The notes beneath the pieces are model-generated. The model was not told the origin of the DNA and searched no databases. It worked only from the letters and a program-made list of their open reading frames with translations. A stretch of 64,000 nt of DNA, from positions 1 to 64,000 of the forward strand of contig MEDX01000015.1 in assembly GCA_001724245.1 (NCBI GenBank). The letters are read 5' to 3'. The position numbers and the translations under genes are program-made. Below, in pieces: positions 1,086-58,747 of this stretch (position 1 is the first letter of the stretch; each line of letters opens with the position of its first letter). The stretch is from Fonticula-like sp. SCN 57-25. Lineage: Eukaryota.

Positions 1086-1150
1086 TTGAGCGCTGCTGTT
1101 ATTGTATTGACGTACAAATGCATTAAAAAACTCGTCGACCATCATAAATA

Positions 1151-2161: not shown

Positions 2162-2254
2162 GTTACGTCAAAGAGGCGCCTCGCGATCGCCGCCCGCCTC
2201 TATTGTTGTTTGCAACTGCCGGACGCTCGGAACAAGCAAGTAATATCACGTGAC

Positions 2255-6316: not shown

Positions 6317-8696
6317 TTACAAGATGGTATCGGTGGCCGTGGCGGCCGCGAGCCGCTGGACGTGCGCGCGAATGGCGGCGCGCGCCTGCTCCGACCCCGC
6401 TTCGTAGTGCTGCCGGATGGCCTCGAATGCGTCGCCCCACGGCTCTGGAGCAGTGTCGGTCTCGAGTAAGCGCCGCCTCTTCCTCGTGTGCTGCTGTCCT
6501 TCGGTCTCTGTCACCGACCCCGTCGGCGCGGCCGCCCAGAAGAGCGGTGCCTCGCGGCGCCCTGGCGTGTCCGGCGGCCGGCTCTCGAGATACGAAACAA
6601 AGTGCATGCGCGCGTCGCCGGCGAGCACACGCTCGAGCGCCGCAGCGGGTACCTGCTCTGAGCGCGCAAATGCCTCGAACGCCGCGAGAGCGCTGTGCCG
6701 GCAGAGCCAGTGCTGCGAAGCCATTAGGGGCGACAGCGCCCCGCCTACAAGCCTGACCGCTTTGGGTGCGTCTTGCGGCGCCTCGGCAAACGACGCCGAG
6801 CCCGCGGCGGCTACAACGTCGAGGACGGCGTCCCATGCAACGGCGGCGCCGCCCCTGAAGACGGCCTCGTGCGCTGCCGACAGTAGCATCAGCATCAGCG
6901 ACGGCGGCGGGCGCTGCACCGATGCACCCAGCCGTAGGAACGACTCGACGACCGACGACATGGCGCGCTCGTCGCCGCCCGACGCCGAAAGAGACTCTAT
7001 GGCGCGTACGCACGCGTCCAGCAGCACCCGACTGTCGCTCGGGGACGGCCCGGCGCGCCGCGAAACGGCCTCCAGCATCAGCATCGCGTCAGCATCTGGG
7101 GGGGACTGCTGCAGCCCAGTGACGACGGCGGTGCGCAGCGGGGCAAGCTCGGATGAGCGCGCGCCCTGCACCAGCGGGGCGGCCAACGCGGCGTCGGCCG
7201 AGGTAAAGAAAGGAGACGCGGGCCAGTCGGACTGCTCCCACAGGCGGCGAAGCGCCACGGTCGCCGCAAGCGGGGTCGGCGGGTCCGCCTCCATCAGCGC
7301 GGCGGCAAGGCGCGCCGCCCACGCCCCGCGGTCCGGGCACGACGCATTCAGCACGTGAAGCCAAACGCGGCACGCCTCGGCAGCGACCGCCGACGAGGGC
7401 GATGTCAGCATCACGGCCAGAACGCTCTCGAGCAGCGCGCCAACGCGGTCGCCGGTCGCAAGGAGGTGCGCGTACACGCACGTGTGCAGCCCGACCTGCG
7501 TGAAAAGAAAACTCGTCGGCGCTGTGACGTGTCAGAAAAGCGCATTAAAAATGAAAAAACGTACCTACGCGCCCTAGTAGGGCAAAGGCCGCGTCGACAA
7601 GAGGGTCGGTCGGCGCGTCGGAGCGGCCAAGCAGCGCAGTCAGCGCGGCCTCGGGAACAGAATCGATGACCTGAATGAGCGAGAGAAGCCACATGAGCCG
7701 CGCGCTGGCAGTGGCGTCATCGCCGTTATTTACATATTCGTTTACCCACTCGGACCAGGCGCGCGGCTCTGCGTCGGTGGCTGCCCGCCGGTGAATGTGC
7801 GCAAAGAGCGAGTCCGCCGCGGCGGTCACGGGCGCAAAAGCGGCGGCTTCGGCGCCTTCCTCGAGCGACAAGAGACATGAAGAAAGCGATAATAACGAGT
7901 CCATGATTGGGCGGCTTTCCTGGCGACGGGCGACGACGGCGACGGCAATCACCGACGGCTGCTTGGCGAGCGTCGACAAGTGGCCGAGAAAGAACCTCGT
8001 TAGCGTAATGCGACGCCGCTGCGCCTTGCCCGCGTCGCCAGACGACGTGCGCCCAGACTGCAGCGCCGACAACGCAGCGACCGCTAGCGACTCGAGCGCC
8101 TGGTGCCAAAAGCCCGCCGTGGCGGGGCCGTCGGGCGGCAGCCGCGAAACGAGCCGCACGGCCGCCTTCCACGATGCGTTCAGCAGCTCGAGGTCGCTCG
8201 TCGACCTTGCGCACACGGCCAAAACAGCGCTACATGACAATGGAAGCGTCGCCATGCCAGCAAGGTGGCCGGCCAGCGCGGTCGTCAGGCGATCAAGATG
8301 GCCGCACAGGGCGGCCGACAAAGAAGCGTCGCTTACCTCGCACACGTATGCAACAAACGCGTCGACAACGTCCATCGCGCTGGCCTCCATTACCGCCGGG
8401 AGCGACTTGTGAAGAGCAACAGCGCCATAGGCGTTAATAAGCGGCGGGCTCGACTTGGCCGCCTTTTGCACGTCTAGTACGATGTCGCGCGGGAGATGCC
8501 TCGATTCGTTGATGGCCGCCGTCAGCCATGCGAGAGCCTCAACCGGCGACTCTCCCGCCTTGCACCGCTCAATACACCAGCCAAGCAATGTCCGTATTGT
8601 TTCTGGGCTGTCTGGCGCATGGGATAGCCGCGAGAGCTCCGAAGAGGCGCCGCCCGCTGCCACCGCCACCGCAGCGCACTCGGCCGCGGTGCTCAT
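6317..8696 (-). CDS. FIRRM: FIRRM/C1orf112/FLIP-like (FIGNL1-interacting) helical protein (intron about 7496-7568)
   Basis: Motifs LLNASWKAAVRL, EACRVWLHVL and HWLCRHSALAAFEAFAR occur in the order remembered for C1orf112/plant FLIP. Confidence 0.55.
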
Positions 8697-8783
8697 CGTT
8701 TTCCCGCCAAAATCACACAAGACTGCCGCATGCCTGTAGACTTGTAGGCCATTCGTAGCTGCCAAGCAGACATCCTCAGTGTC

Positions 8784-10748
8784 ATGGAGGGCTCGCGACC
8801 ACCTCCCCTTGCTGAGCGGGAGGCGCGCGGGGGCATATTCTATGCCCTGATGCGCCGTGAGCTTAACGGGTTTGGCAGTCGCGGCTACCACAGCCCGTGC
8901 AGCAGCATTTCGATGACGGGCGAGATCCGCAAGCGCATGCACGAGGCGATTGTGCCAAACCAGGTGTTGGAAGACATTGCCGTGCCCAACTGCACCATCC
9001 GCACGTTTTCACCAGACGGCACGTTGCTGTTGTGCATCTCTCGCTCGCTCTCGGCGCTGTGCGTCTTTGACGTTGTCTCCACGACGCACGACGACGATGC
9101 GCCCGCGCCATTGTCCGGCGAGTTCCCCGTCTGGTCATCCTTTTTTTCTCCTCGCTACGAGGCGGTCCTGACGTCGTCCTCGGAGCACCTTTTGTCGAGC
9201 TTTTGCCTTTTTGTCCCCGGGACGCCGTTTGTTCTGCTTGCGTCGACTGCGCGTATCGAGACGCAGGAGCTTGCCGCGCAGTACACCATCATCGTCATCG
9301 AGCTTGCGACGGGCCGCGTGATGAGCCGACGCTCCTTTGACGACGATCTCTTGTCGCCCAATCATTCGAGCGTATTCCTCCTTGGGACGCTCCTGTCCAT
9401 CCAGTCCTTCCGGCACCAGAGCGTCCGCGTGCTGCAAGTGACACCCGCCGGCGGCCTCGTCGACGTTCGCAGCGTCGGCCGGACGCTCTACGACGATGAT
9501 GACCTGTTCATGATGCAGACGGCCGGGGCTGCCGTGCCACCACGCACTGACGCCGCTCACCCCGGCGCGCCGCAGCAGCAGCAGCCACAGCAGGCGTCGC
9601 AGCCAGGGTCGCCAATGAATGCGGTGGCGGCGTCCCCGCGCGCCCAATCGCCCATGGTCCTGCCCGGCGCTCCCTTCTTTGCCGGGCAGCAGCACTCGCA
9701 GGCGGGCCACGTGTTGCCGCCGCCCGAGCAATCCCCGACGCCGGCCGCGCAGTCCGCGTCGCACGCCGACGCTTCAGACGCCCTCGCCACATGGCCTGAG
9801 CCGTCGCGGTCGCCGTCGCCACCGCCGATGCCGTCGCCCTTCCTGCAGCGCATCCACACATTTCTGCACCGCCGCGCGGCACGGGACGGGTCACTTGACC
9901 ACTTTTTCCAGCTGTTTTCGCTGCTCGAGACGCTCATGATGGTCAAGGCACAGCTGCTGGACAGCCAGCACCTCCTGATCAAGCTTCGGTCGGTCAAGGG
10001 CGCGCAGATGCACGGCCACAAGCGGTACGTTGCGCCGCCGCCGCCGACAACGTCCTTTGGGCCACAGCCCTTTGCCGTCTTTGTCGTGTACAACTTTATC
10101 ACGACCGAAATTGTCAATGTGTACGACCAGGGGTCGCACGAGCTGTGCGCGCTGCTGTGCGACTATGGCGAGTACTTTCGCGGCGGCGTCTGGAATGGCC
10201 CCGCGTCCGTCTTTGGCCCCGGGTCGGGCAGCACGAGCGGCGGCGTCAGCGGCGGCGCCGGGGGCGCGCCCGGCCAGTCGCCCATGAAGGTCAACTACGT
10301 GTGGCGGGCGCTGAGCACGCTGCCTTATTCGGCGCAGACCATCAGCGTGTCGCCCTACGTGGACAGGGCGCTCTTTTCGTACGACGAGCGGTTCATGTCG
10401 CCGTCCGACAGGCCAAAGCAGTGCCCGGACCCGGCGCTCCGCTTCTACAGCAGGCGAACGGGCCGCGTGCGCTTTCGCATGATTGCTGGGCCGCCGCAGG
10501 CACCAGTCAGGATGAGGCACACGATGAAGTACGTGTTCCATCCATTTGCGCCGCTCGTCATCTCGACCATGGCCATGGGAGGGTGGCAGTCGGCCGCCAT
10601 CAAGATTCACTATAGAAGCACAAGGCCAAACCCGGCAATGGGGCCAAACGCCGCGTTCCTCTTCAACGCCGGTGCGCCGGCAAGCGCTGCCATGGCAAAC
10701 GCCGCTGCAGTGTCGTCGCCGCTGCCGCTCTCGCAGGTCGACAGCTAG
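8784..10748 (+). CDS. DET1: De-etiolated 1 homolog (CRL4 adaptor)
   Basis: PNCTIRTFSPDG, LLSIQSFRHQ, QLLDSQHLLIK, LPYSAQTISVSPYVDRALFSYDE and FHPFAPLVIS. Confidence 0.9.
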   Translation: MEGSRPPPLAEREARGGIFYALMRRELNGFGSRGYHSPCSSISMTGEIRKRMHEAIVPNQVLEDIAVPNCTIRTFSPDGTLLLCISRSLSALCVFDVVSTTHDDDAPAPLSGEFPVWSSFFSPRYEAVLTSSSEHLLSSFCLFVPGTPFVLLASTARIETQELAAQYTIIVIELATGRVMSRRSFDDDLLSPNHSSVFLLGTLLSIQSFRHQSVRVLQVTPAGGLVDVRSVGRTLYDDDDLFMMQTAGAAVPPRTDAAHPGAPQQQQPQQASQPGSPMNAVAASPRAQSPMVLPGAPFFAGQQHSQAGHVLPPPEQSPTPAAQSASHADASDALATWPEPSRSPSPPPMPSPFLQRIHTFLHRRAARDGSLDHFFQLFSLLETLMMVKAQLLDSQHLLIKLRSVKGAQMHGHKRYVAPPPPTTSFGPQPFAVFVVYNFITTEIVNVYDQGSHELCALLCDYGEYFRGGVWNGPASVFGPGSGSTSGGVSGGAGGAPGQSPMKVNYVWRALSTLPYSAQTISVSPYVDRALFSYDERFMSPSDRPKQCPDPALRFYSRRTGRVRFRMIAGPPQAPVRMRHTMKYVFHPFAPLVISTMAMGGWQSAAIKIHYRSTRPNPAMGPNAAFLFNAGAPASAAMANAAAVSSPLPLSQVDS

Positions 10749-22180: not shown

Positions 22181-22328
22181 ACCCTTTCCATGATTATTAT
22201 GCCTATGCTGTTTTGTGTACATTATTTTAAGTCAAACGCTTTCCTACTGTATTATACAAACGAAAAAGGAAATAAATAACGGATATATCAAACAACAACT
22301 AAACAACGAAAAAAGCGGCGCTGCCTCA

Positions 22329-24644
22329 TCAAAGGTTGAGCGAAATGGCCCCGCAGGCGCGCTCGGCAGCGAGCTCGGCGCGCAGAGCCGCCGCCTCCTC
22401 CTCCCACTTGAGCGCGGCCGCCTCGTGCTTCTCAATGAGACGGCGCAGCGTGCGCTGCTCGTACTCGCGCTTGCCGAGAATGTCGGCAATCTCAGTCTTG
22501 CTGTCGGCCAGCGCCAGGCGAAGCATCGACACCTCGGCGCGAAGCTCGGCAAGCTCGGCGTCGCGCGTGTCCTCCTCCTCCTTGGCGGGCGTCTCGGCCG
22601 ACGCGACCGTCTCGTCAAGAGGCGTCTCGGGCTCCTCCTCCTCCTCGTCGGCAGAGTCAGAGTCAGAGTCAGAGTCGGCCTCGCTCTCCTCAGCCTCGGC
22701 CTCGCTCTCCTCCTCCTGAGTTTCCTCCTCCTTCTGCTCGACCTCGGCGACCGCGGGCTTGGGCTCAACCTTTTCGCCGTGAGGGAAGCGCCACTTGTCG
22801 ATGGCGGCAAAGAGCTCGTCGGCGAGCGTCGGCGTGCGCGCGAGGATGTGGAAAGTGCTGACAACGCCCGGCTCGAGGACGAGCATGATGGTAAGGCCGC
22901 GGTCGCCGGCGCGCTCGCAGCGCAGCGCAGGGACGAGCCACGTGTTGATGGCGGCACCGCTGTAGACGCGGCCAGTGTCCTCGTCGCGCATAAAGATGAG
23001 GCGCGTGTTGCCCGAGGCCGACGTGTGCGCGACAAGAATGTCGCCCTTGCCAAAGCGGTCCCAGGCGCCGTCGCGCAGCACCTTGACGAGCACCGTCATG
23101 CGCGCAACGTTCACCTCGCCGCGGCTGAGACCCATCTGCGCGTCGGTCAGGTCGACGGCCGGCGGGGGCGCGGCCTCCTCAATGGGGCCGGTCGACGCGT
23201 TCACGCCGCTGGCGCTGCTGGCGGCCGACGTAGAGCGCGACACCTTGCTGTCAACCGACGACGCCGACGTCGAGCGGGCGGCGGCGCCGCTATCGCCGGG
23301 CACGTGGAGGTGCTGGCGCGGCGCGGCGACGCTCTTGCGCGCGCCGAGGATGGCGAGCCACGCGCGCTTGTCGTCCTCAGTGGACGCCTGCACAATCAAA
23401 AGGTCCTGCGGCTTGCTGATGCGCAGCTCAAACATGTGGCGGCCAAACTCCATGTCGGGGATGTCCATCGCGCTGACGTCGGCAATGTGCGCGAGCGGGC
23501 GGAAGAGCTTGTACGGCTTGGCGCCCGAGGCGACGGCGGCGGCAGCGGCGGCAAGCGCGCTGGGCGTGATGCCGTTGCACGCGGCGTGGCCGTCGGCGGC
23601 CTCAATAAGCAAAACAGTCTCGCCGACAATGGCGAGGGTAAACTCGCGGCGCGACTTGATCTTCATCTCCTTGATCGAGACGTGCGCAACGTCGCTCTGG
23701 CGGGTGATGCGCGTGCTCGTGTTGCGCGCAAGGGCCACGTGCTGGGTGCCAAAGTCAATGGCCTGCTGGAGCATGCGGATGCGGTCCCAGTTCTGCTGAG
23801 CGCGCGTCTCCTCGTTGATGCGCTGGAGCAGCTTGCCCATCTCGTCGACGGCAGCGGCGCACGCGGCATAGTCGGCGTGATCGGCGGGCGTCTTGGAAAC
23901 AATGCTCTGGAGCGTCTGCTTGTACTGGAAAAGGCGCGAGGTCGGGGCCGTAAGGTCCTCACGGATGTTGAGGCGGAGGTGCGCATTGTCGGGCGCGCCG
24001 CTCAGGGACGCAGTAAAGGTGGCAAAAGCGCGGTGGTTGGTCGACTGAAGGCGAGCGACCTCGGCGTTCATGCGATGCTGGTTGCTCGTGTACACGGCGT
24101 AGATCTCGCACTTGCGCACAAAGTCGGTCAAAAGGTCGCCAATGGTCTCGATGACGGGCGACTGGGCTGCCTGGCGCTCAGACAGCGAAGCCATAAAGGC
24201 AGAGTGGAGGGTCGAGACCTCGGACAGGTTGGCAAAAAGGAGGTCGCACTCAATGGCCGTCAGAACACGCGTCTTCTGGATCGGCTGCACATAGACACGC
24301 GAAATATCGGAAAGAACCTCGCAAAAGCTCTGCTCAGTGCGGATCAGCTCAAAGATGGCCTCCTGGCGCTGGCGCTCGGCAGGGCTGATGGCGGCGAGCT
24401 CGAGCTCAGACACATGCTGGGACCAGAGCGTGCCCTCGGGCGACGCCTTGGTGCGGATAACGGGGCGAGCAATAATTTTGCTCGACTTGGCGCTCGAGAA
24501 GATGCTGGCGCCAGTGCGGCGCGCCGGCGTCACGGGCTCCTTGCGACCCGTCGCGCGATCCTTGACAAAGTTGGCCAAATCATTCAACTCGCGACCGTTA
24601 TGCTCGGTCAGCACACCGCGAAGCTTCCTGTCGTCGTCACCCAT
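22329..24644 (-). CDS. RhoGEF (DH-PH) with a second PH-fold (RanBD-like) domain, acidic tract and coiled coil
   Basis: RQEAIFELIRTEQSF, LLFANL, PTSRLFQYKQTLQSI and DDKRAWL; downstream WDRFGKGDIL...RLIFMRD. Confidence 0.85.
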   Translation of the reverse strand: MGDDDRKLRGVLTEHNGRELNDLANFVKDRATGRKEPVTPARRTGASIFSSAKSSKIIARPVIRTKASPEGTLWSQHVSELELAAISPAERQRQEAIFELIRTEQSFCEVLSDISRVYVQPIQKTRVLTAIECDLLFANLSEVSTLHSAFMASLSERQAAQSPVIETIGDLLTDFVRKCEIYAVYTSNQHRMNAEVARLQSTNHRAFATFTASLSGAPDNAHLRLNIREDLTAPTSRLFQYKQTLQSIVSKTPADHADYAACAAAVDEMGKLLQRINEETRAQQNWDRIRMLQQAIDFGTQHVALARNTSTRITRQSDVAHVSIKEMKIKSRREFTLAIVGETVLLIEAADGHAACNGITPSALAAAAAAVASGAKPYKLFRPLAHIADVSAMDIPDMEFGRHMFELRISKPQDLLIVQASTEDDKRAWLAILGARKSVAAPRQHLHVPGDSGAAARSTSASSVDSKVSRSTSAASSASGVNASTGPIEEAAPPPAVDLTDAQMGLSRGEVNVARMTVLVKVLRDGAWDRFGKGDILVAHTSASGNTRLIFMRDEDTGRVYSGAAINTWLVPALRCERAGDRGLTIMLVLEPGVVSTFHILARTPTLADELFAAIDKWRFPHGEKVEPKPAVAEVEQKEEETQEEESEAEAEESEADSDSDSDSADEEEEEPETPLDETVASAETPAKEEEDTRDAELAELRAEVSMLRLALADSKTEIADILGKREYEQRTLRRLIEKHEAAALKWEEEAAALRAELAAERACGAISLNL

Positions 24645-24654
24645 TACGTTGAGA

Positions 24655-24696
24655 TACACACAAAACACACACACACACACACAAACACCCACACAC
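24655..24696. repeat. (CA)n microsatellite just upstream of the RhoGEF start
   Basis: Interrupted acacac run. Confidence 0.8.
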
Positions 24697-24864
24697 TCTC
24701 TCGAAACGCGGGCGCAGAAGCGATTCACAGACGTTTCTGCGATTATTTTTGAATTTTCGTAACGGCAATCAGAGGCAATCAGACGTAAAATCAGGCAAAA
24801 TCAGAGGATGCACACCCTCGCCACCCCTCGAGGGGATCATTTCTCATCTACCTCGACCCTGACG

Positions 24865-29160: not shown

Positions 29161-30933
29161 ATGGCCGACGTGGAAGATGGGGCGGCGGCGCCCAAGCCGG
29201 CGACTCCGACTGTACGCCTCGTTGTGCACTCTTGTGTGCGCTCTTTAGATCGTTATTAATGTGGTTTGTAGCTTTCCCAGCCGCAGCAGCAAACCCAACC
29301 GCGGCGTATTATGGTCATGGCGCATCCCAATGCGCAGCCGCAACATCCCGGCGTGTCAAACTCGCTGTATGAAAAGTCTGGCCGCTACGGTGCGCACTTT
29401 TGCTGCCTGCTTGGTGCTTTTCTAATGATCTGCTACAGTGACTGTTGGTGGAGGTCCGGCGGGGAGCAGCAGCTCGCAGTCTCTTTCGCCCGCGTCCGTT
29501 CCTCCGGCGTTGACCCCGGAGCAGATTGCCGCGATCGAGCGTCGCCGCGAAGAGCTTGAAGAGGCCGACGATCTGCAGCACTATGCCAAGCAGATCAGCT
29601 TAATTTTCCGCCCTGTGCTTGTGTGCATCCTGCTTGTCGTTTGGTGGGTCAAGGTCGAGCAGCAAAACATTCTTGCGATGGGATCGTGCGTACCTGCCCC
29701 TGTAGAGATCCTGCCTCTGACCCTTCTTCCAGGTATTCCTCTCTGCTGTTTACCAACAATGTGTCTACTGGCGAGGCCATCAGCGACGGCCTCATCAATG
29801 CGTTTATCATCATTGGCGTTGTTATCGTGATCACCATTGTATTCGTAATACTCTTTGTCAAGGGCTACATCAAGTTTCTGTACGGCTACCTGCTGGTCGC
29901 GACCGGCCTCCTCCTGGGCGGTACCGGCGGCCTCTTCCTGTACCTTCAGTGCGATGCCCTGGGCGTCCCGCTCGACATTATCACGCTCGTGTTTGTCTGC
30001 TGGAACTTTGCGCTCGTCGGCCTCGTCAGCGTCTTTTGGCACACGCCGCTGTGGTTGCGCCAGATCTACCTCGTGCTCGTCTCGGCCCTGCTTGCCTACT
30101 CCCTCACAAAGATCCAAGAATGGACAACGTGGTTCCTGCTGGGCCTCCTTGTCATTTGGGACCTCGTGGCCGTGCTGACGCCGTGCGGCCCGCTGCGCAT
30201 GCTCGTCGAGTCGAGCCAGCGCCAGAACCAGGAAATCCCGGCGCTGCTCTACTCGGTGACCATGGTCTTTTTCATGGCCGACGCGCCCGCCGACGCCAAG
30301 AAGAAGAAGAAGAAGAGCAAGAAGGCCGCCGCGGGCGCCGTGCAGCTCCGCGACGACGACTCGGACACCGGCGAGGCCGATGCCAGCAAGGATGTCCGCC
30401 TCGTCTCGTCCGAGAGCGACGACATGCCGACGCCCAGCGCGTCGGGCACAAACGTCCCGCTCAAGCCGTACAGCGACGACTACCGCGCCAAGGCGCCGTA
30501 CCCGATGAACTCGCAGATGAGCGGCATGAGTACGCAGGGCCTCCTCGCCAGGTCCGACTCGGTGGCAGTCGCGTCGCCGCCGACGCCCACCCAGCAGCAG
30601 CAGCAGCAGGCCGCTCAGCAGGCGGCGCAGCAGCAGCAGGAAGACGACGATGATGATGATGAGCGCAACGGCATCAAGCTCGGTCTTGGTGACTTTGTGT
30701 TTTACAGCGTGCTTGTGGCGCGCGCGGCGCTGTCGGACTGGACGACCGTCGTGGCGTGCATCTGCTCCGTCATGACTGGGCTCATGTCCACCATCATTCT
30801 GCTCGCCATGTTCAAGCGTGCGCTCCCGGCGCTGCCCATCAGTCTCGTGCTCGGCATCCTCTTTTACTTTGTCACGTCGCTCGTCATCACGCCGTTTGCC
30901 GTGAACAACGTCAGCGTCCTCGTCCACGTATGA
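29161..30933 (+). CDS. PSEN: Presenilin (gamma-secretase catalytic subunit), several 5' introns
   Basis: LQHYAKQI, EWTTW, WDLVAVLTPCGPLRMLVE, IKLGLGDFVFYSVLV and ALPALPIS; both catalytic Asp residues present. Confidence 0.96.
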
Positions 30934-38998: not shown

Positions 38999-40952
38999 TT
39001 ACAGCTCGTCGTGGCCGTGGCCGTGCGCCTTTTCGCCGGCCTGCTCGCCGTCCTCCTCCTCCTCGACCTCGGCCTCGGCCTCCTGCACGGTCTCGCGGCA
39101 CACGATGGGCGTGGCGACCTTGAAGGTGTACTCGCAGCGCGCGGGCTCCTCGGCGGAGAGGAGCTCGGTGGAGGCGCCGCAGACAAACTCGACGCGCGTG
39201 AGGCGGTCGGGTCCCTGCCAGCACTTGAGGCCGTCCTTGTAAATCTGCTCGTTAAACGAGTCGCCGTCCCACTCGCCCCAGCGGCCGAGCAGCGTCGTCG
39301 CACCGCCCTTCTTGGCCTTTTGCTCGGTCTTGTCAAAGAAGCACACCTCGTACGTGTACTCGACAGTGTCGAGCGTGGCGCACTCGCCGTGCAGCGCGAA
39401 AAAGGCGTCCGACGGGCCGTACGGCGTTGACAGAATCTTTTCAAGGCTGGTAATCTCATTGTCAACGTCGCGCTTGGCGTCCTTGGCGCTGTCGAGCGAG
39501 GCGCGGGCGGACTGCGCGGCTGCAAAAGATGTGTCAGCAACGACACAAAACTCAAGAGAGAAAGAACAAGGACAGGCCTACCTGTCGGGGGGACATAGCC
39601 AAAGAACGAATAGAGACGACCCGTGACCGCTGACCACGTCTTTTTCATAACTAATCACCCAAGAAACACAAAGGAAAAGGTCAATACACCAATAAAACAC
39701 TGTGGAAACGGGCCCCAAATAATATAGCCAAATCCTCTTCCCCTACCTCTTCCCGTATCATCCCATAATATTCCATTGGCGTACCACTGACGACCTCCTC
39801 GGGGTAGGCCGACGGCGTGCCGTCGTCGTCGACGAGGAACTCGCCGTCCTTGCTTCCGTCCTCGAACGCGTTCACGGCGAGCGTGATTTCGTTGACAATA
39901 CCCTCGAGCTCGCTCGAGACGGTACGGCCGGCCTCTGAGCCGTCCTTGAGCTGCGTGGCGGTGCGGCCGAGCTTGGACGCGGACACCTCGATGGACTCGT
40001 GGAACGGATGGCGGGCGGCGCGCAGGGCGTCGCGCACCTCCTCAATGTCGCCGAGCGTCGCCTTGCTCTCGGCGGCCTCGCGGAGAATGTCAATGATGGG
40101 GTCGAGCTTGGAGGCGGCGAGCTCGGCGGCGTCGAGCAGCGCCTTGTGGACCGGCGAGTCGCGGCGGAGCGCCTCGTACTCTTCAAGCGCAATCTTCTCG
40201 GCCTTGGTGGCAGCGTCGGCGCGATCAGTAAGGCTGGCAACCTTGGCATCAAGCTCGGGGAGCTGGGCGCGGAGCGAGTCGAGGCGCGCGCGCTTCTCGG
40301 CGAGGCGGGTCGAGGCAAAGTCAACAAGGGCGGCGCGCGACTCGAGGCCAGCGCGCGTGACGCGATCACGCTCCTCCTGCTCCGCGCGGAGCGCAGCACC
40401 CTCGGCCTCGCACGTGTTCTCGCAGGTGAGCAGACCGCTGTTCTCGTCGGAGCCGTCGCAGCAGTCGCAGACAAGGTCATCAACGCGGTTCGACGGGATG
40501 CGCTTGCTGACAGAGCCCTTGTTCACGCAAAAGAAGGTGCCAGCGGGGCACGCCGAGGTTCCGGGCTCATCAGAGCCGTCAGTGCACTCGCAGAAATCAT
40601 CGTTCACGCTCATAAAGTGAACAGCGCCGCGGCCATCAAGGCACCGGAACTCGCCTTCAGGGCCAGGGACATAAAGGTGCTTGTCTAAAAAAAGCGCATG
40701 AGCACAACAGAAACAAACTAAGGCGGCAAGAAGGAAAAAGGACACAGTAGCTCAAAAAAAAGTAATGTACGCACCCTTGGGGTCAATACCGAAAACTTCA
40801 AAAGGCGCGCCCTGGCCGTCCATGTCGTCGGGCGACATGGAGAACGTTTGCGTCTGCACCTCCTGCCCCTCCTGCCCCTCCTGCGCAACGGCAACAACCG
40901 CCAAAGCGGCGACCGCCACAAGCAGCAGCAAACGCATTACCTTGCGTGCCAT
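38999..40952 (-). CDS. PRKCSH: Glucosidase II beta subunit (multi-exon)
   Basis: Signal peptide, VNDDFCECTDGSDEPGTSAC, CDCCDGSDE, coiled coil, MRH domain (KCWQGPDR...EEPARCEY) and C-terminal HDEL. Confidence 0.95.
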
Positions 40953-41665: not shown

Positions 41666-43098
41666 TTAAGCTGATTCGTCGATGCGCGCGGGCTCGTCCA
41701 CGTCGTAGTGCACATTGGGCTCGAGCGGCTCGCTGGGGAGCTCCTCCATGGGCATCTCCAACGACGCCCCCGAGCGCTTCGTCCTGCGCCTCTCGACGTA
41801 CAAGACGATGCCTGCAGTGATCAGACCGACGGCCACCAGGATGGCAAGGAGGATACCGGCGACGGCGCCGCTGCACAGCACTGGTCAGGAATGCACACCG
41901 ACCGCGGGCCAGGCTACGCACCCAGAGAGGCCAAACACCCACGGCGTCGTCGGCTTGTCCTCGCGGTACACGACGACGACGTCCCAGCCGAAAGCGCTAA
42001 CGGGCGCGTCCTCGATCATGTTGGCGACCTTGTACCACGGCATGTGGTCGACGCGGAAGCACACGCGAGTGACATCCCTGTGCGCACAAATTAGCGACCA
42101 AAAAGAGTCCATTGCCCGCGCGTACTGTCCCTCAAAGGGCTCCGCCTCCGTGACGTTGAGGATCGTGACGTCCGACTCGGCGATGCCCGAGACCGAAGCG
42201 ACGCGGCTGACAAACAAGAGGTTCATCTGGCTGTTCCAGCTGGAGAACGGCTGGACGATCTCGGCGCAGATTGTCGGCGGGATGGTCGGCGGCGCGTCAA
42301 AGGACGGCGTGGACGAGCCGCGCGCCACCATGTTGCAGAGCGCAACTGCATCAGACACGGTTCCCGTGCAGTTGGTGCAGGTGATCCGGAGGTAGTAGTA
42401 GGCGGGGTGAGTCATGTTGGCCGGCGTGCCCGTCGCCACGTGCAGCCTGGACCCGGCCGACCACATCGGCTCGGGCGCAGCGTCAAAACCGGAAATCTCG
42501 CGCATCAGCAGCATCTCGCTCGCCGGCTCGCTCGCCAGCTCGTCTAGGGCAGCCTACGTCAGCAAAAAAAGGCCCAGTAAAACAGCACGAAAAGAGACGC
42601 ACTTGTTCCCAGGACGGACAGCGAGACGGAGCCCGGCTGGTCGTTAAAGAAGTAATACTGGAGGCTGAGGCGCGTGAACGACACGGCGGGGTCGGCGAGC
42701 ACCCTGACGATGACGGTCCCGTTGCCGTTCCACAGGGGATCCCAGCGGACGGCCATGCAGACCTGGTCGGCAATGTTGGTCGCGTATACGCCGGCAAGGT
42801 CGCTCGACGTCGGGAGAGCAGCAATGACGCCGCGCGAGTAAATCTGGTCCTCGCACTCGCTCGCCATCAGCGGGCAGCTGCCGGCCATCTCATCGCCAAA
42901 CCCGTAAAAGCCGACGCGTGACGTGCTCCCCGCACCGTCAACGACGAGGGACGGGTCGGCGATCAGCCACGCAGTCGCCGCGAAATCATTGGGCAGAACG
43001 GGAAAGTCGTTCAGCTTTTGCGTCAACACAAGCGACGCCTGCGTGCCGCACACGGCCGCCGCCACAAGCAATACCGCCACCGCCACAGCGCGCGCCAT
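41666..43098 (-). CDS. Orphan type-I membrane protein (at least 3 exons)
   Basis: Signal peptide MARAVAVAVLLVAAAVCGTQA, Cys-containing ectodomain, TM GILLAILVAVGLITAGIVLYV + ERRRTKR, short acidic tail containing NVHY. Confidence 0.7.
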
Positions 43099-43537
43099 CT
43101 CGTCGACTTGGCCTACACGGTTGTGACAGCCCTGTAGCAGCCACCCACTTGCAGATCAGAGCATTTTCCCTAGATAGGCCGACGGACACCCGCGACCAAA
43201 GCCTCGACCCCCGCCCACCCGCACATCCCGAGACGACCCGCGAGAGGCCTACCGGTTGCTCGAGGTGCACTATTGAGCTCGAGCCGGCGCCGGTTCTCGG
43301 ACTCCATTGGAAAAAGGGGAGGATCTGTGGCTGGACTGCGACACCCTTTGTTGTTTTTCGCGTTTTATTTAGTTTTGCGTGATCGGCGCTTTTTTCGACC
43401 GCGATTTTGGCATCGCAGATTACAAAGGACTTTATCTTTGCTTTGGCGTGTCGCGTTTACTCGGCCCGCTTTGCTTGTTGTGAGGAAAGGTGTGCTTCTT
43501 AGACTATTAAAGCGCCGCGCGCGCCAGCCTTGGTCCC

Positions 43538-46500
43538 ATGAAGAAGGGAATCGTCATATGGCTGCTTCTGGCCGCCGTCTTGGCGGGGGCCACAACCGCG
43601 CATAGTACGTCGACGTACCTTTCCGCCTGTCACTAACGTGTGGCGCATCTGTAGGCTCGAGGATACGTGTTATTGCGTCGGAAAGTGATATTTCATGCGA
43701 CGCAATGATTGTCGCCGAGACGGAGCACGGGATTCCCGCGGTACGCGCCTATCGATCTGCGCCCGCCATGCTCTGCATCTGACGCTGCGATCTCTTGCTT
43801 TCCGCAGGATTCGCGACCTATGACGTCGTTGACGCTGGACTATCTGGAAGACTGCATTTCAGCGCGGTCGTTCGTCGGCAGCCTCGTTGTTGTGACGCCC
43901 AATCCGTACGCCATCTATTGCCCTCTCGACCGCGTCTGACGCCCCACTCGCGATAGAAATTGCCCGCTCTTTTTTCAGCTAAATAATATTGTGGGCGCGG
44001 CGGCGATTGTAGTGATTCGTGAAGAAGTTGATCTTGTATTATGGCCCGCGGAGCCGCTCGCGATCCCCGTGTTTGCAGGCCCGCCCTCGTCATGGTGCGC
44101 GCGCCCTCTCGCCTTTTCCCTCCCCCCGCCAACGCCCTTTTTGTTGCTAGTCTTTTACTTTTAGCGCGCTCCCAACAGCGCGTCGTCCTGCGCCTCGATG
44201 GCGGCTGCAGCCAATCGTGCGCGATGCGGATCGGCGACGGCCAGTGCGATCCCGAGTGCAACACTGCCACGTGCGTGTACGACGGCGGCGACTGCTGCGC
44301 GACCACCTGCCAGGGTCTCTGCTGCGACGCGCCCGACGCGTCCACGTGCCTGTACGACCCGCTTGGCGCGGTATCTGGCGTGGACGACTGGGCGCACGGC
44401 GCCTGGGTGGACGGCGAAGCCTCGCCTTCCCTGGCCGGCGCCCCCGGCGTTCTCCTCGACTCGCACGTGTGCATTGAGGCCGGCCAGCAGCTGGAGGTGC
44501 GCTTCCGCCCGGGCACGTACAATTCGGTGACGCTCGTCCTCTCGCCGCGGTCCCTGAACGCCTTCGTGTTCATTGGCGGCTTCGACCCCGAGTCGCTCGG
44601 CTGGGGAATGATCAGCGCCGACGAAACGGTCGCGACCGTCAGCCTTATTGTCCCGTTTGTGAGCGACGCCGACGGCGCGCCGATGCAAATCTACGTCCCG
44701 TATGCGATGAACGCGCCCGTCTGCTTTGACTCTGTCGGCGTTTCTGGCACCGTCTATGCCGCCGCCGACCTCCCCGCCGTGTGGGACTTGGGCGGCAACC
44801 AGTACTCGAACCTGCTGGACGCCGACCACCGTGGCGCGCTGCTCACTTTCCCGCCGCTGCCCGCCGCGGGTGACGACGGCGAGTCCGAGTGCGTGCCGGG
44901 CGACGTGCCGCTTCACCCTGCCTGCGCGGCGGTGCTCGGCGATGATTGGCCGGTGCGCGCCGGCGTCGACGCCAAGGACGCCGCAAGGGCCGTCGACGCG
45001 TACATTGAGCGCGGGCGCGGCGCTTTCCTCGCGCAGGCGGCGTCGGAAGAGTGCCTCGCGCTGAGCCTGCGCGTCGTGTGCGAGCTGTCGTTCCCAACAT
45101 GTGACGTGCCGTGGATTTTGTCGGAGGTTGCTGCAAAGGTGTGCGACGAGGCGCTGACAAAGTGCGGGTTGGGCTTGGCGCGTGATCTCTTTGGCTGCGG
45201 AATGCCCGTTTGCGGTCAGCGCGCAATGTCATCGGAACCGATGCCGACGCTCATCCCTATCGACTTGCCCGATTTGCCTACGGAAGCGCCAACAGAACTG
45301 CCAACGATAGCACCTACTGAGGCACCTACGGAATTGCCGACGGTAGCACCTACTGAACTGCCAACGGTTGCACCTACTGAGGCGCCTACTGAGGCGCCAA
45401 CCGAGCCGCCGACTGCTGCACCGACTGAGCTCCCTACTGAGGCTCCGACTGCTGCACCGACTGAAGCGCCTACTGCTGCGCCTACTGACGCACCAACAGC
45501 CGCACCAACTGAGGCTCCGACTGAAGCACCTACAACTGCTCCGACCGAGTCACCTACAACTGCTCCGACCGAGTCACCTACAAGTGCTCCGACGACTGCT
45601 CCGACCGAGTCACCTACAAGTGCTCCGACGACTGCTCCGACCGAGTCACCTACAAGTGCTCCGACGACTGCTCAAGTGCTCCGACTGAGGCACCGACGAT
45701 TGTGCCACCTTCTGCGACTGCCGTGCCGTCGCCCACTTCGTCGGTCAAGCCGTCGTACAAGCCGTCATCCAGGCCGTCGACCAGTCCCCGCCCGACGTTC
45801 CGCCCTCCCCTTCCGACGCTCGTGCCATCGCCGCGCCCGAGCCTGACGCCGCGCCCGCCGATTGTCGACATTCACGATACGGACCCGCCGATTGACGAGG
45901 ACGAAACCGACGCCGATACGTCGTTTGGCCTCAGCGGGACGTCCATGGCGGTCGTCGCGGCGGTCGGCTCGGTCGTGGCGATCGCGCTGATCGCCTCTGG
46001 CGGCTACTACTGCGTCATCACGATTGGGCCGGCGGGCAAGAAGCGCCCGCCGCCGTCGGACGAGGAGCGGATGACTATGGCGGGCGAGCCCGTCGAGCTC
46101 ACGATCGTGGCAAAGTCGGACGCGCCGGGCGGCAGTGACGGCGACATTGGCGGTCGCGCTTCGCACGTGATGCTGATGACGAGCGTCGCGCAAGGTCCGA
46201 TTGGCTCCGACACGTACCTTGCTGCCGTCAAGCAGCTTGTGAGCGCGCGCGGCCGCGACGTGCTCGCTGCGCTCGACGCGAACGGCTTTAATGTTCTGCA
46301 CTATGCCGCGGCGCGCGGCCACCGCGACGCAATTCAATACTTTGCCGACCTCGGATTGGACATTGACGTGCGCGACGCCAAAGGTAACACACCGCTCGCG
46401 TGGGCTTCCCGCGGCGGACAAGTCGCGTGCGCACAGTTTTTCATTGCGCACGGCGCCGACGTGAATGCCGCCAACACGACCCGCGAGACGCCGCTGCTGT

Positions 46501-48287
46501 TCGCCGCGCGCGCCGACAGCGTCGAAATTGTTGCGATGCTGTGCGACGCGGGCGCCGACGTGAATGCTGCTGACGCGGACGGGACGACGACGCTGCATCT
46601 GTGTGTGGCGTCGGCGGCGGCAGAGCACCTTGTCGCGCTCGTGTGCGCGCGCGGCGCTGCTGTGGACGCGCGCGACCATCTCGGCGACACGCCGCTGATC
46701 CGCGCGGTAAAATGTGCTTCGCCGTCTGTGATTAGTGCGCTGCTTCAGCGCGAGGCGAATGTTCGCATCTGCGACGCGCAGGGCGAGTCTGCCGTGCACT
46801 GGGCGGCGATGCTCGGCCGCTGCGACGCGCTCGACGCTCTTTCGCCGACGCGCGAGGAAGTTAATTTGACCAATGCGCGCGGCGAGACGCCCTACTACCT
46901 TGCGTGCCGCGAAGGCCACGAGGCGATGGCGACTGCGCTGCTGGCGCGCCACGCCGACGCGCTCGCCGTCGACGCGCAGAGCCGCACCGTCCCGTGCGTC
47001 GCCACAATGCAGTGCAAGAAGAAAAGGGCGGCGTCGGGCGAGTCTGACGCGGCGCCCGCGCCGTCGCCGTCGTCGTCGTCTCTTTCATTTTTGCTGTCGA
47101 CGGCGGCGCTCGTGAACCCGTACTGGACGGCCATCGAGCGCGTCGTCGCGCAGTGCGGCCTTGACTGCCTCTTTATGGTCGACGTGCAGCGCCGCACTTT
47201 TCTGCACCACGCGGCGGCGCACGGCGACACGGTGACTGTCGCGCGCCTGCTCGCCGCCGCCTCCCAACTTCAGCCGAACAGCGCCGCACTTGCGCGCCTC
47301 GCCAAGCGGCGCCGCGGCGACGACGAGCCTGACTCTTCTTCGTCTGCGGCGGCGGCGCTCATGTCGCTTGCCGACGCCGCAGGCGACACTGCCCTTTTGC
47401 TTGCCGCTCGCTACGGCCACGCTGCCGTTGTGCGTTACCTTCTTGAAGCCGGCGACAACTGGAATGTGCGCGGCGGCGGTCAGGAAAGCGCGCTCGGCGA
47501 GGCGTGCCGCGGCGGCCACGAAGCCGCTGCGCGCGTTCTTCTCCTGCACGGCACCGCCGACGTGAATGCGCGCGACGCGCACGGCACGACGCCGCTTATG
47601 AGCGCCGTCGCGTGCGGCTCCGCTGCCCTTGTCGAGCTTCTCATCAGCGAGTCCGCCGACGTGAACCGCCGCGACGCCCAGGGCTCCACTGCGCTCATGT
47701 GCGCCGCGCGCTACCTCGAATGCCGCGTCATGTCGCCGCGCGACGGCTGCGAGACGGTCGAGATGCTGTTGAGAGCTGGCGCCGACGTTCAGGCGCGCGA
47801 CGACCGCGGCATGACTCCGCTCCACTGGGCCGCCGCCACCGGCAACACGCGCGCGTGCATGTCGCTCGTGCGCGCCGCGGGCGTTGACCTCGACGCGACC
47901 AACGCCAAGGGCCATACTGCCTTTATGCTAGCGCGCGCCGAGGGCCACGAGGCCGTCGCCGACATGCTCGCGAGGGCCGGCGCCGACCAGGCGTCCGACC
48001 CCGCCGACCTCGAGCCAAAGTGCAGCGGCGTCGCGGCCAAGCGCGTCGCCAAGGCGGCCAAGCGTGCGTCCGGCGGCGCGAGCAAGGCGGCCAATCACAG
48101 CCCGTCTGCGTCGTCGAGCGGCAGCGGAAATGTCAGCAGCGACGCCGACTCGCCGGTCCAGTTCAAGGTCGAGGCGTCGGCGTACCTTTCGCCGACGGAG
48201 CTCGACGACGGCGGAAAGCACCCGCGCATGCTCGGCGCGCCGATGCACGCAATCAAGCAAAGCACGTCGCCATTACCGCACTACTGA
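43538..48287 (+). CDS. Notch-like receptor: SP - PA-like - LNR - Frizzled-like CRD - mucin stalk - TM - ankyrin repeats; frameshift at about 45673
   Basis: Exons 43538-43604, 43655-43740, 43808-43905, 43957-44094 and 44151 onward join in frame via GT-AG introns. LNR: CSQSCAMRIGDGQCDPECNTATCVYDGGDCC. TM: MAVVAAVGSVVAIALIASGGYYCVITIG. About a dozen G-x-T-P/A-L-H-x-A ankyrin repeats follow. Confidence 0.8.
45278..45700 (+). repeat. Coding tandem repeat (PTEA/PTTA/PTES; 12-nt base unit, three perfect 36-nt copies at 45565-45672)
   Basis: ccgaccgagtcacctacaagtgctccgacgactgct x3. Confidence 0.9.
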
Positions 48288-48520: not shown

Positions 48521-49186
48521 CTAGTCCTTCTTTTCCTGCTCGATGGCCTGCCACTCGTGCACTGGCCTGAAGCTCGCGAGCAGCCCGATCTTGTCATTGT
48601 CGGCATTGGGAAAGAGCGACCACGCGTGCGTCTTGTAGACCGCCTTTGTGGCGTAGTACGCGACGGGCCGCACGATAAACATGACCAAGAGAATTAAGAG
48701 CGCGAGCGCGAGCAGGACGTACATGAGCCCCGTGCGCGCCGCCTGCGGCCAGAACGGCATCAGCAGCCCGGCGAGCACGATCGCGACAATGCCGCCGAGC
48801 AGCGCCCACCGGCGGCGCACAGAGCCCTCGTAGTACCACACAAAGTTGTCGCCGGCGGCGAGCTGCGCGCCGTCCTGCCGCGAAAGGTACGCGCGGCGCG
48901 TCACAGATGCGGGCTGGCCATCGTGCGCGGGATGATGCACAGTGTCCACATGGAGAGCGACGCGGCCGATCAGGCCGTCGCGCAGCATCGACTGCAGCAC
49001 AGAACGAGCAGAGTGCGCGTCGCGGCGCTTCAGATGCGCCGACACGGCCGCGGGGGCATCGGCCGACGTCAGCCACGATACGGCGGCATCGACGGAAGAG
49101 TAAAAGTAGCGGCGGCCATTCAGAATGCCCATCTCGCGAGGGACGCCGGCGTGAAGAAGACCAGCAAGGGCTTCAAGCTCGCTCAT
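48521..49186 (-). CDS. SEC62: Translocation protein Sec62
   Basis: FVWYYEG, TM with MPFWP, second TM, then WSLFPN...GLLASFRP. Confidence 0.85.
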   Translation of the reverse strand: MSELEALAGLLHAGVPREMGILNGRRYFYSSVDAAVSWLTSADAPAAVSAHLKRRDAHSARSVLQSMLRDGLIGRVALHVDTVHHPAHDGQPASVTRRAYLSRQDGAQLAAGDNFVWYYEGSVRRRWALLGGIVAIVLAGLLMPFWPQAARTGLMYVLLALALLILLVMFIVRPVAYYATKAVYKTHAWSLFPNADNDKIGLLASFRPVHEWQAIEQEKKD

Positions 49187-49302
49187 GGCGCGGAAAGAAA
49201 GAAAAAAGGCTGTTAAAACTGAAAACTAGAGATGCCGCTGCAAGGATGCAGGCAAGATGCGGCGCAGAACAAAAAGGTGCAAACTGAAACTAGTTTGCAC
49301 AC

Positions 49303-57494: not shown

Positions 57495-57871
57495 CGGTGT
57501 CAGTCCAGCAGATCCCCCGCACAATGTTGTCGTACCCATGTCGGCCGTCTCGGTCAAGTCACTCTGATTGGTCGGTAGCCACGAACATCACGTGATGTAC
57601 GCTGACACAACGTGCCGCCAAATGCCTGTGGCAGGGGATGCGGGAGCGGAATTCCACTGTAAATCAGCCACACATATAAAAAAAAGCAGCACAGCATGTT
57701 GGCCACGACGTTAAGAGTGCGCGCATGCTGGCATCGCTACCAGCCAAAGCCAAAAGTCTTTCGAGCATCCCCGACCATCCTTTTCGGTCTTGCGATATAA
57801 ACAGCAATGCCACAACCCTGTGGCAGCATTGTCACATGCGTGGATCCTGCGACTGCAGGTTGCAAGCGGGC

Positions 57872-58747
57872 ATGGAGCCTGCCTCCGCCGGCGCTGATTC
57901 GGATATTTATCCCCCCGGCCTCCCATCTCTCCAGCCGCCCACCGCGCCCCTTGTGTCCGCGTCTTCCTCTCCCGATCCGTCTGCCTATGATCCCTCGTCG
58001 CCATCCCCGTCATCGTTTTTGCGCTCGCACATCCCTCGCGCCGTGTTTGACACGCGTTCCGAGCTCTTCACCTTTGCTCAGGGCTACGCGCGGACGCACG
58101 GCTTTTCGGTGAGCGTCGGCCGCTCTCACGAGCGCTATGTCTATTTAAACTGCAGCCGCGGCGGCCACTATACGAATCGCGGCGAGCTGACGCCGGCCAT
58201 GCGCCGCCGCCAGTCGCGATCGCGCAAAACAGGATGTCTCTTTCAGGCGCGCGGATGGCGCCGCGCGGACGATCGCTGGGAACTGTCGACGCTCATCGAC
58301 GCGCACAACCACCCTGCCGAGGCAGCGGAAGGAAACCCGCGGCACCGGCGGATGACGGCCGCGCAGCGCGAGGAGGTCGAGCGGCTCACGGCCGGCGGCG
58401 TCCGGCCCGCCGCCATCATCGAGGCCATCCGATCAATGGACCCGACATTCGCAGGGAACAGCAGGACCATCTACAACGCGCGCGCTGGTCTCAGGCGGAG
58501 CAGGGGCGCTGGCGCCGTCGCCGCCGCGGACGCATCCACCTCATCGGACGATCCCGCCAAGCGATCCGCGCACGGCGGCGGCGATGCGCTGCTCGAGGAA
58601 CTCGCCGCGCAGAGCATCAATAGAAGAAGCGTCGCCGCGGGCGAGGACGACGCGGCGGAGCGCAAGGACGCCGACGACGCTGGCGACAAACGGTCCGACG
58701 CGATCGCCGCCGCCGCCGCCTCGATCCCGAGCCTGCCCAAAGTTTGA
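57872..58747 (+). CDS. FAR1/Aft1-type DNA-binding protein related to the MULE transposase N-terminus; no DDE domain
   Basis: YARTHGFSV...LNCSRGG...SRKTGCLF...WEL...HNHP, then a helical segment ending TIYNAR. Confidence 0.8.
   Translation: MEPASAGADSDIYPPGLPSLQPPTAPLVSASSSPDPSAYDPSSPSPSSFLRSHIPRAVFDTRSELFTFAQGYARTHGFSVSVGRSHERYVYLNCSRGGHYTNRGELTPAMRRRQSRSRKTGCLFQARGWRRADDRWELSTLIDAHNHPAEAAEGNPRHRRMTAAQREEVERLTAGGVRPAAIIEAIRSMDPTFAGNSRTIYNARAGLRRSRGAGAVAAADASTSSDDPAKRSAHGGGDALLEELAAQSINRRSVAAGEDDAAERKDADDAGDKRSDAIAAAAASIPSLPKV

Follow-up and report, generated by a model that had tools for sequence, protein, structure and literature searches.

The 64,000-nt stretch of DNA considered here (positions 1 to 64,000 of contig MEDX01000015.1 from Fonticula-like sp. 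SCN 57-25; in the following "the window") carries on its forward strand, at 43538-48287, a gene for a putative membrane protein that combines a Lin-12/Notch repeat (LNR) and a probable Frizzled-like cysteine-rich domain (CRD) with a stalk, a transmembrane (TM) helix and two blocks of ankyrin (ANK) repeats. It contains two open reading frames (ORFs, counted from stop to stop), one of 604 aa at 44032-45846, which covers the ectodomain, and one of 920 aa at 45525-48287, which covers the TM helix and the ankyrin repeats. The preliminary description of this DNA treated the gene as one ORF after splicing, but the two ORFs differ in frame. The reading that we prefer, with a probability of roughly 60%, is a single gene for a lineage-restricted, domain-shuffled type I membrane protein of ~1,500 aa, whose frame is broken in the assembly.

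The 5' part of the gene consists of four small exons, which precede the large exon 5 (Table 1). The ATG at 43538 opens a stretch of 22 codons encoding MKKGIVIWLLLAAVLAGATTAH, and the N-terminus encoded by exon 1 is hydrophobic (Kyte-Doolittle value 1.86). Introns 1 to 4 connect the five exons in frame, and introns 1 to 3 all have a GTACG[TC] donor, a CTRAC box and a YAG acceptor. A codon-usage score, for which eight ORF stretches of the window with Pfam support served as training set, is positive in the frame of the model only, and best there, for all five exons. One of the training stretches (46200-48284) is the ankyrin ORF of this very gene, and the score of the C-terminal half (+0.42) is therefore partly circular. 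The earlier proposal that four small exons splice in frame and yield a signal peptide is thus confirmed by the introns and the codon scores.

The change of frame is located within the Pro/Thr (PT) repeat of the stalk, directly downstream of a perfect tandem repeat with a period of 36 nt, and the frames are offset from each other by precisely the 16 nt that are absent there. Downstream of the break, the stretch 45678-45935 is coding-like in the new frame only (+0.28 vs -0.54 and -0.37), and this frame continues the stalk, reading APTEAPT..., while the continuation of the old frame past the break has a codon score of -0.64. In the second ORF, the TM helix begins right with the first Met (position 45945). 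The 89 codons ahead of this Met are coding-like and would be meaningful only within a longer protein. An intron bridging both frames was considered and rejected, because none of the 380 stop-free GT/GC-AG candidates has the GT[AG][CA]G[TC] donor of introns 1 to 4, and because the stretch that would have to be skipped is coding-like. There is also no room for a second promoter, since an upstream ORF on the reverse strand ends at 43155, the gene for Sec62 lies on the reverse strand at the other side, and the two large ORFs overlap. It therefore looks as if 43538-48287 was one gene and as if the break is either an artefact of assembly or sequencing or a very recent lesion.

The PT repeat itself (45262-45675) deviates from the remainder of the gene. 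Codons ending with A or T prevail, with a GC content at third codon positions (GC3) of 0.38 in frame vs 0.82-0.85 elsewhere in the gene, and the codon score is negative in all three frames. This suggests that the repeat consists of recently expanded units with atypical codon usage.

Within the ectodomain, the presence of one LNR, as described before, is borne out by a match above the Pfam cut-off (PF00066, E 6.3e-9, 36.6 bits with the cut-off at 21.2), which spans residues 14-43 of the ORF translation. The repeat has six cysteines and a DGGDC-type motif. LNRs are mobile, calcium-binding Cys-knot modules. A PDB search with the ectodomain returned 23 rows at E <= 10, 15 of which are LNRs of Notch1-3, pappalysin-1/2, GlcNAc-1-phosphotransferase and a fly protein, and the other eight have E > 0.5.

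The module ahead of the LNR had been described as a PA-like domain, and here the results are divided. Exons 2, 3 and 4 scanned singly gave no Pfam family, and a read-through of exon 3, intron 3 and exon 4 (with X at the intron stop) gave neither a Pfam family nor a PDB match. A custom hidden Markov model of the PA domain (PF02225) was built from 30 bacterial PA stretches, which derive from a scan with matches at E <= 0.001 in 77 of 151 genomes. This profile aligns to residues 73-109 of the spliced N-terminus, at FVGSLVVV...GAAAIVVI, with 3.3 bits, a weak signal, as 5 of 3000 shuffles and one of 94 natural windows score at least as high. The designation PA-like thus has a weak signal in the custom profile and none in Pfam or the PDB. 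For the ~150 aa between the LNR and the Cys-rich domain, no Pfam family was found at E <= 10, and no homologue was found with phmmer against 1.84 billion representative sequences; an Atlas search with ectodomain residues 55-365 gave nothing usable either. An AlphaFold2 (AF2) model of the 365-aa ectodomain has strands in this region, but the model is poor (predicted local distance difference test, pLDDT, 39.4).

The earlier description of the Cys-rich segment as Frizzled-like is upheld in part. Frizzled (Fz, PF01392) is the best Pfam family for the 117-aa segment, aligning its residues 57-102 to profile positions 42-90 of 110, but the match stays below the threshold (E 0.039, 14.9 vs 32.1 bits), and a scan of the whole ectodomain ORF gave no Fz at E <= 1. 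In an Atlas feature search, Fz clusters are nearest (0.89, with 185 of 256 features shared), which is below the 0.9 line and therefore a lead only; all ten best matches with a family fall into one family or clan. The sequence search of the PDB with the 117-aa domain had no match. A single-sequence AF2 model of the domain is poor (pLDDT 52.2), and a Foldseek search of the PDB with this model yielded 41 matches at E <= 10, none of them at E <= 0.001 and none of them Fz, a result that is uninformative and not counted against Fz. Since both AF2 and Foldseek are uninformative, sub-threshold signals are all that the Fz and PA assignments can draw on. The segment shares a C-x8-C-x6-C spacing within a helical segment with Frizzled-type CRDs, but it has nine cysteines and the protein lacks the 7-TM part. 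The canonical Frizzled CRD has ten cysteines. Judged from its sequence, a divergent Fz-like CRD is the probable but unproven identity of this domain.

From the stalk onwards, the preliminary description is largely in agreement with our analysis. The proposed mucin stalk corresponds to PT repeats (PF04886, E 5.9e-17) and is composed mainly of Pro (57 residues), Thr (47) and Ala (32). Hydropathy shows, next to the signal peptide, one dominant hydrophobic segment only, which is the predicted single TM helix and which is directly followed by the basic run KKR. The signal peptide and the TM helix, both recognized by inspection and hydropathy, belong to the same protein only if the break at ~45675 is bridged. 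Instead of about a dozen ankyrin repeats in two blocks, a motif scan found 14 (7+7) at a spacing of 33 residues; Pfam detects 11 stretches of PF00023 in the second ORF (E 1.1e-63). The basic patches and the Ser-rich tail were recovered as well, with KKKR in the linker and KRRR in the insert of block 2.

Table 1. Coordinates of the features of the gene at 43538-48287 and of neighbouring genes mentioned in the text
Feature	Position	Strand	Evidence or remark
Exon 1: start codon and signal peptide (MKKGIVIWLLLAAVLAGATTA...)	43538-43604	+	sequence, donor GTACGT at 43605, hydropathy, codon score
Intron 1, 50 nt	43605-43654	+	GTACGT...CACTAAC...TAG
Exon 2: start of N-terminal PA-like module	43655-43740	+	splice signals, codon score
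Intron 2, 67 nt	43741-43807	+	GTACGC...CTGAC...CAG
Exon 3: ...FVGSLVVVTPN, first half of PA-like motif	43808-43905	+	splice signals, codon score
Intron 3, 51 nt	43906-43956	+	GTACGC...CTGAC...TAG; in-frame TGA inside
Exon 4: NCPLFFQLNNIVGAAAIVVI...IPVF, second half of PA-like motif	43957-44094	+	codon score, custom PA profile
Intron 4, 56 nt, least certain splice	44095-44150	+	GTGCGC...TAG; frame-keeping alternatives have non-consensus donors
Exon 5, first reading frame: LNR, beta-rich region, Cys-rich domain, first part of PT stalk	44151-45675	+	
LNR, single copy	44206-44295	+	PF00066
Region without family, ~150 aa, predicted beta-rich	44419-44871	+	AF2 strands at low confidence
Cys-rich helical domain, 9 Cys, probably a divergent Frizzled-type CRD	44872-45222 (core 45040-45177)	+	sub-threshold PF01392, Atlas lead
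Pro/Thr/Ala/Ser-rich stalk, ~206 aa, across the frame break	45241-45860	+	PF04886, composition
Perfect tandem repeat	45559-45673	+	period 36, 3.2 copies, 100% identical (Tandem Repeats Finder)
Frame break	45671-45677	+	16 nt of repeat period absent; frame shifts from codon starts ≡1 mod 3 to ≡0 mod 3
Exon 5, second reading frame: remaining stalk, TM helix, ANK blocks, tail, stop codon	45678-48287	+	
TM helix (MAVVAAVGSVVAIALIASGGYYCVITIG), then KKR	45945-46028	+	Kyte-Doolittle maximum 2.32
Ankyrin block 1, 7 repeats	46281-46985	+	Pfam, motif scan
Linker with KKKR patch (47016-47027) and Ser-rich stretch	46986-47189	+	
Ankyrin block 2, 7 repeats; first with insert bearing KRRR (47304-47315)	47190-47990	+	Pfam, motif scan
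C-terminal tail, Ser-rich, basic	47991-48284	+	
Presenilin, complete, single exon	29560-30933	+	PF01080, E 3.9e-116
Glucosidase II beta subunit-like	39681-40751	-	E 5.6e-42; upstream of the gene studied
Sec62	48521-49225	-	E 1.9e-20; convergent with 3' end of the gene studied

The search for relatives of the ectodomain (365 aa, phmmer) gave 322 matches at E <= 0.001 among the representative sequences, 150 of which were listed. In each of these 150, the best stretch lies inside query residues 5-103, that is the LNR and its Cys-rich tail. The best matches are multi-LNR proteins, two of which, both named, belong to a diatom and a brown alga. Ten of the matches were scanned for domains: nine contain LNRs, in combination with ricin-B, fn2 or PMP repeats, and none contains ankyrin repeats. 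The protein shares the LNR module with other LNR proteins, such as the pappalysins, GlcNAc-1-phosphotransferase and the multi-LNR secreted proteins of stramenopiles, but differs from the multi-LNR database relatives by its ankyrin repeats. The best 120 relatives of the ankyrin half are generic ankyrin proteins with 24-33% identity, none of which contains PF00066. A word-indexed search found no longer ectodomain homologue among 8000 candidates, and in the JGI metagenomes, 131 pattern matches included no relative, while a 42-nt stretch had no exact match there. There is also no paralogue in the window, since tblastn of both halves gives self matches only. Among the matches listed, the sole database protein with similarity running past the LNR is P0013, a protein of 136 aa on a public contig of 1,507 nt, which is 43% identical across residues 8-93. 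It might represent part of an orthologue from a related organism, and may be the one true relative. The gene is, in our assessment, real and lineage-restricted.

The window is GC-rich (55-69% per 2-kb bin), with closely packed genes and few, short introns; from 52 kb on, its GC content is lower (49-56%). The neighbouring genes are housekeeping genes, encoding Sec62, the beta subunit of glucosidase II, COG8, Det1, a BRCT protein, a RasGEF and a transporter. Several genes of the secretory pathway (Sec62, glucosidase II beta-like, presenilin) lie inside 20 kb, and this nearness is probably due to chance. On the reverse strand, a divergent ORF at 42559-43155 has a signal-peptide-like start (MARAVAVAVLLVAAAVCGTQA) and no Pfam family, and shares an upstream region of ~380 nt with the gene studied. 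In the lower-GC part, an ORF at 57680-58747 (+) contains a FAR1 DNA-binding domain (PF03101, E 4.7e-7) and may be a transposase-derived gene. Three long ORFs have no Pfam family at E <= 0.001, namely 1148-3352 (+, 734 aa), 22194-24752 (+, 852 aa) and 7545-9008 (-, 487 aa).

The presenilin gene, 12.6 kb upstream of the gene studied, is informative with regard to the organism. Its product shares at most 47% identity over most of its length with any named protein. In a tree with 22 rows, it forms a pair with the presenilin of Fonticula alba (support 98/97), and this pair is sister to an aphelid and the fungi (100/99), with animals and Amoebozoa placed elsewhere. On the basis of this one presenilin tree, we provisionally regard the organism as a neighbour of Fonticula within the fungal side of opisthokonts.

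The protein had been proposed to be a proto-Notch, and this is the part of the preliminary description that we cannot support. Like animal Notch, it would be of the type I layout (if the frame is bridged), with an LNR outside and ankyrin repeats inside; its DGGDC-type LNR matches the LNRs of Notch1-3 in the PDB with E 1e-6 to 2e-4, and ankyrin block 1 consists of seven repeats. The ANK domain of Notch has seven repeats, too. However, in animal Notch, three juxtamembrane LNRs form a regulatory region together with the HD (NOD/NODP), whereas here a single LNR is located near the N-terminus and ends 548 residues before the TM helix, with the 206-aa PT stalk in between. Its 14 ankyrin repeats form two blocks and resemble the ankyrin consensus, not Notch, and the PA-like and Fz-like modules and the long PT stalk come in addition. 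In a PDB search with the ankyrin part, Notch does not occur among the best 60 of 350 matches at E <= 1e-10; top matches are ankyrin-1/2, DARPins and NOMPC, and TRPA1 is found, too. The absence of EGF repeats and of the W-x-P motif of the RAM region, already pointed out before, was confirmed: the Pfam scan of the ectodomain ORF shows no EGF, NOD or NODP family at E <= 1, no Pfam family at all (and hence no EGF) was found in the small exons, and W-x-P is absent throughout the 869-aa C-terminal part, where the first Trp after the TM helix is residue 242. With regard to pathway partners, neither a DSL ligand nor ADAM10/17, nicastrin, APH-1, PEN-2 or CSL is encoded by the 20 other large ORFs of the window that were scanned; in the window, presenilin alone was found. 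Considering in addition the lack of an orthologue among the 1.84 billion representatives, the protein is, as far as its sequence tells, Notch-like in the order LNR...TM...ANK only and no Notch homologue.

The published definitions of Notch agree with this. The diagnostic set is LNR, EGF and ANK according to Gazave 2009 (PMC2770060), and EGF, Notch, TM and Ank domains in this order according to Richter 2018 (PMC6040629), where "strong evidence" needs at least one EGF. As EGF is absent, the protein is not Notch by these sets. Choanoflagellate "Notch-like" proteins with LNR, TM and ANK, weakly similar to Notch, have already been described in the same two papers, and in Mylnosiga fluctuans EGF, Notch, TM and Ank domains are present in order (PMC6040629). 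The layout LNR-TM-ANK in unicellular opisthokonts is therefore not new, whereas its combination with an Fz-like CRD and a PA-like module was not found to be described. The choanoflagellate proteins resemble the protein studied here in their order of LNR, TM and ANK and in their origin from unicellular opisthokonts, but, by their published descriptions (among them that of the Monosiga protein in Gazave 2009), they carry EGF. The protein studied here, in turn, has an Fz-like CRD, a PA-like module and 14 ankyrin repeats, and its organism groups with Fonticula and fungi rather than with animals. A description of a protein with LNR, Fz, TM and ANK was not found in the literature, supplementary files aside. 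In its accessible part, a further paper (PMC7649014) only groups protist and bacterial proteins named "Notch" by annotation, and in a preprint on a nucleariid genome, the words "Notch" and "ankyrin" do not occur. What appears to be new here is thus the combination of LNR, TM and ANK with an Fz-like CRD, a PA-like module and 14 ankyrin repeats, together with the apparent placement outside the Holozoa.

How certain is the structure of the gene? The small 5' exons might be foreign to it, and translation might start at the in-frame ATG at 44041, with the hydrophobic stretch LFVASLLLLA as signal sequence, as no stop interrupts the ectodomain frame from 44032 on and the ATG is followed by this stretch. 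However, the chain of small exons opens with a textbook signal peptide and is spliced in frame via three GTACG introns, and the custom PA profile aligns over the junction of exons 3 and 4. We consider this alternative very unlikely, and the single-exon start at 44041 was rejected, since its codon score is -0.22, compared to +0.19 for the overlapping frame of exon 4. It is a more serious question whether the frameshift is real in the organism. The locus might then be a very recent pseudogene, or it might encode a secreted protein, consisting of signal peptide, PA-like module, LNR, CRD and PT repeats and ending at 45846, with or without a separate membrane-anchored ankyrin protein, which would start at Met 45945 and use the TM helix as signal anchor. 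Indeed, the sole sequence available shows two ORFs in different frames that are not bridged by a consensus intron, Met 45945 opens the TM helix with KKR after it, as would fit an N-out signal anchor, and perfect tandem repeats slip readily; moreover, no protein of the window itself covering either half was found in the two length ranges searched. However, a strong coding signal is kept in both halves (+0.30 and +0.42; GC3 0.85 and 0.82), the codons upstream of Met 45945 prolong the stalk, the halves have neither intergenic space nor a promoter region between them, and repeat regions are classic sites of assembly errors, too. A real frameshift is thus the less probable explanation, but one that has to be taken into account.

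If a single gene with a frame broken in the assembly is accepted, its product would start with a signal peptide, a ~110-aa N-terminal module with a weak PA-like signal and one LNR, followed by the beta-rich region, the divergent Fz-like Cys-rich domain and the ~206-aa Pro/Thr stalk, which is presumably O-glycosylated. After one TM helix, the cytoplasmic part would contain the 14 ankyrin repeats (7+7), separated by the basic, Ser-rich linker, and the Ser-rich tail. The protein would reside in the plasma membrane, where the stalk would hold the LNR and the CRD away from the cell. The ectodomain might bind an external ligand or surface, and this binding might be relayed via cytoplasmic partners recruited by the ankyrin scaffold. 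An independent, domain-shuffled surface receptor or adhesin is therefore the best-supported reading of the domain content. Several points speak against this picture of the gene and its product. The gene as assembled does not encode a single protein, no orthologue is present in the 1.84 billion representatives, so that conservation of the architecture cannot be shown, and the proposed function (binding and an ankyrin scaffold) derives from domain types only. The AF2 models are poor (pLDDT 39 and 52) and the Foldseek results meaningless, and the placement of the organism depends on one gene, whose tree partner is on a long branch. Finally, the window contains 38 matches to a loose intron pattern (GTRMGY...CTRAY...YAG), no more than its shuffles (43.1 +/- 7.1), and splice motifs alone therefore prove little; the support for the exons comes from their in-frame chain and from the codon scores.

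One could also assume a convergent or ancestral Notch-style receptor, in which binding of a ligand to the LNR/CRD ectodomain leads to shedding and then to a cut of the TM stub by presenilin, and the ankyrin fragment moves to the nucleus by means of the basic patches as nuclear localization signal. The predicted type I topology with a cytoplasmic ankyrin part, the seven repeats of block 1, the KKKR and KRRR patches, the complete presenilin gene in the same window and the choanoflagellate precedents (PMC2770060, PMC6040629) are in line with this idea. However, the juxtamembrane LNR-HD region is missing, as the LNR is far from the membrane behind the stalk, there is no EGF, NOD, NODP or W-x-P, the ankyrin repeats are generic, and the assembled sequence has a broken frame. 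Presenilin occurs widely among eukaryotes and is uninformative on this substrate. After shedding, presenilin could release any type I protein, and nothing in the data points specifically to a release of the Notch type in this case. We regard a Notch-style receptor as highly improbable. A long shot is also the more elaborate idea that a fungal-side opisthokont independently built a receptor regulated by proteolysis, in which the LNR and an Fz-like sensor sit on a mucin stalk and the ankyrin part with its nuclear localization signal is freed by the nearby presenilin and acts in the nucleus.

Notch is a textbook signalling receptor of animals that was assembled from older domains. If an independent Notch-style receptor did exist in this organism, signalling by cleavage and transfer of an ankyrin part to the nucleus would be older than the Holozoa or would have arisen twice. 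The weight of the present finding in this regard is limited, because there are no orthologues, two domain calls are sub-threshold, the frame is broken in the sole sequence and the cleavage is hypothetical. Nevertheless, each protein with LNR, TM and ANK outside the animals bears on the question whether this layout originated once or repeatedly, and the apparent placement of the organism on the fungal side, together with the Fz-like CRD, argues for a repeated shuffling of the same parts.

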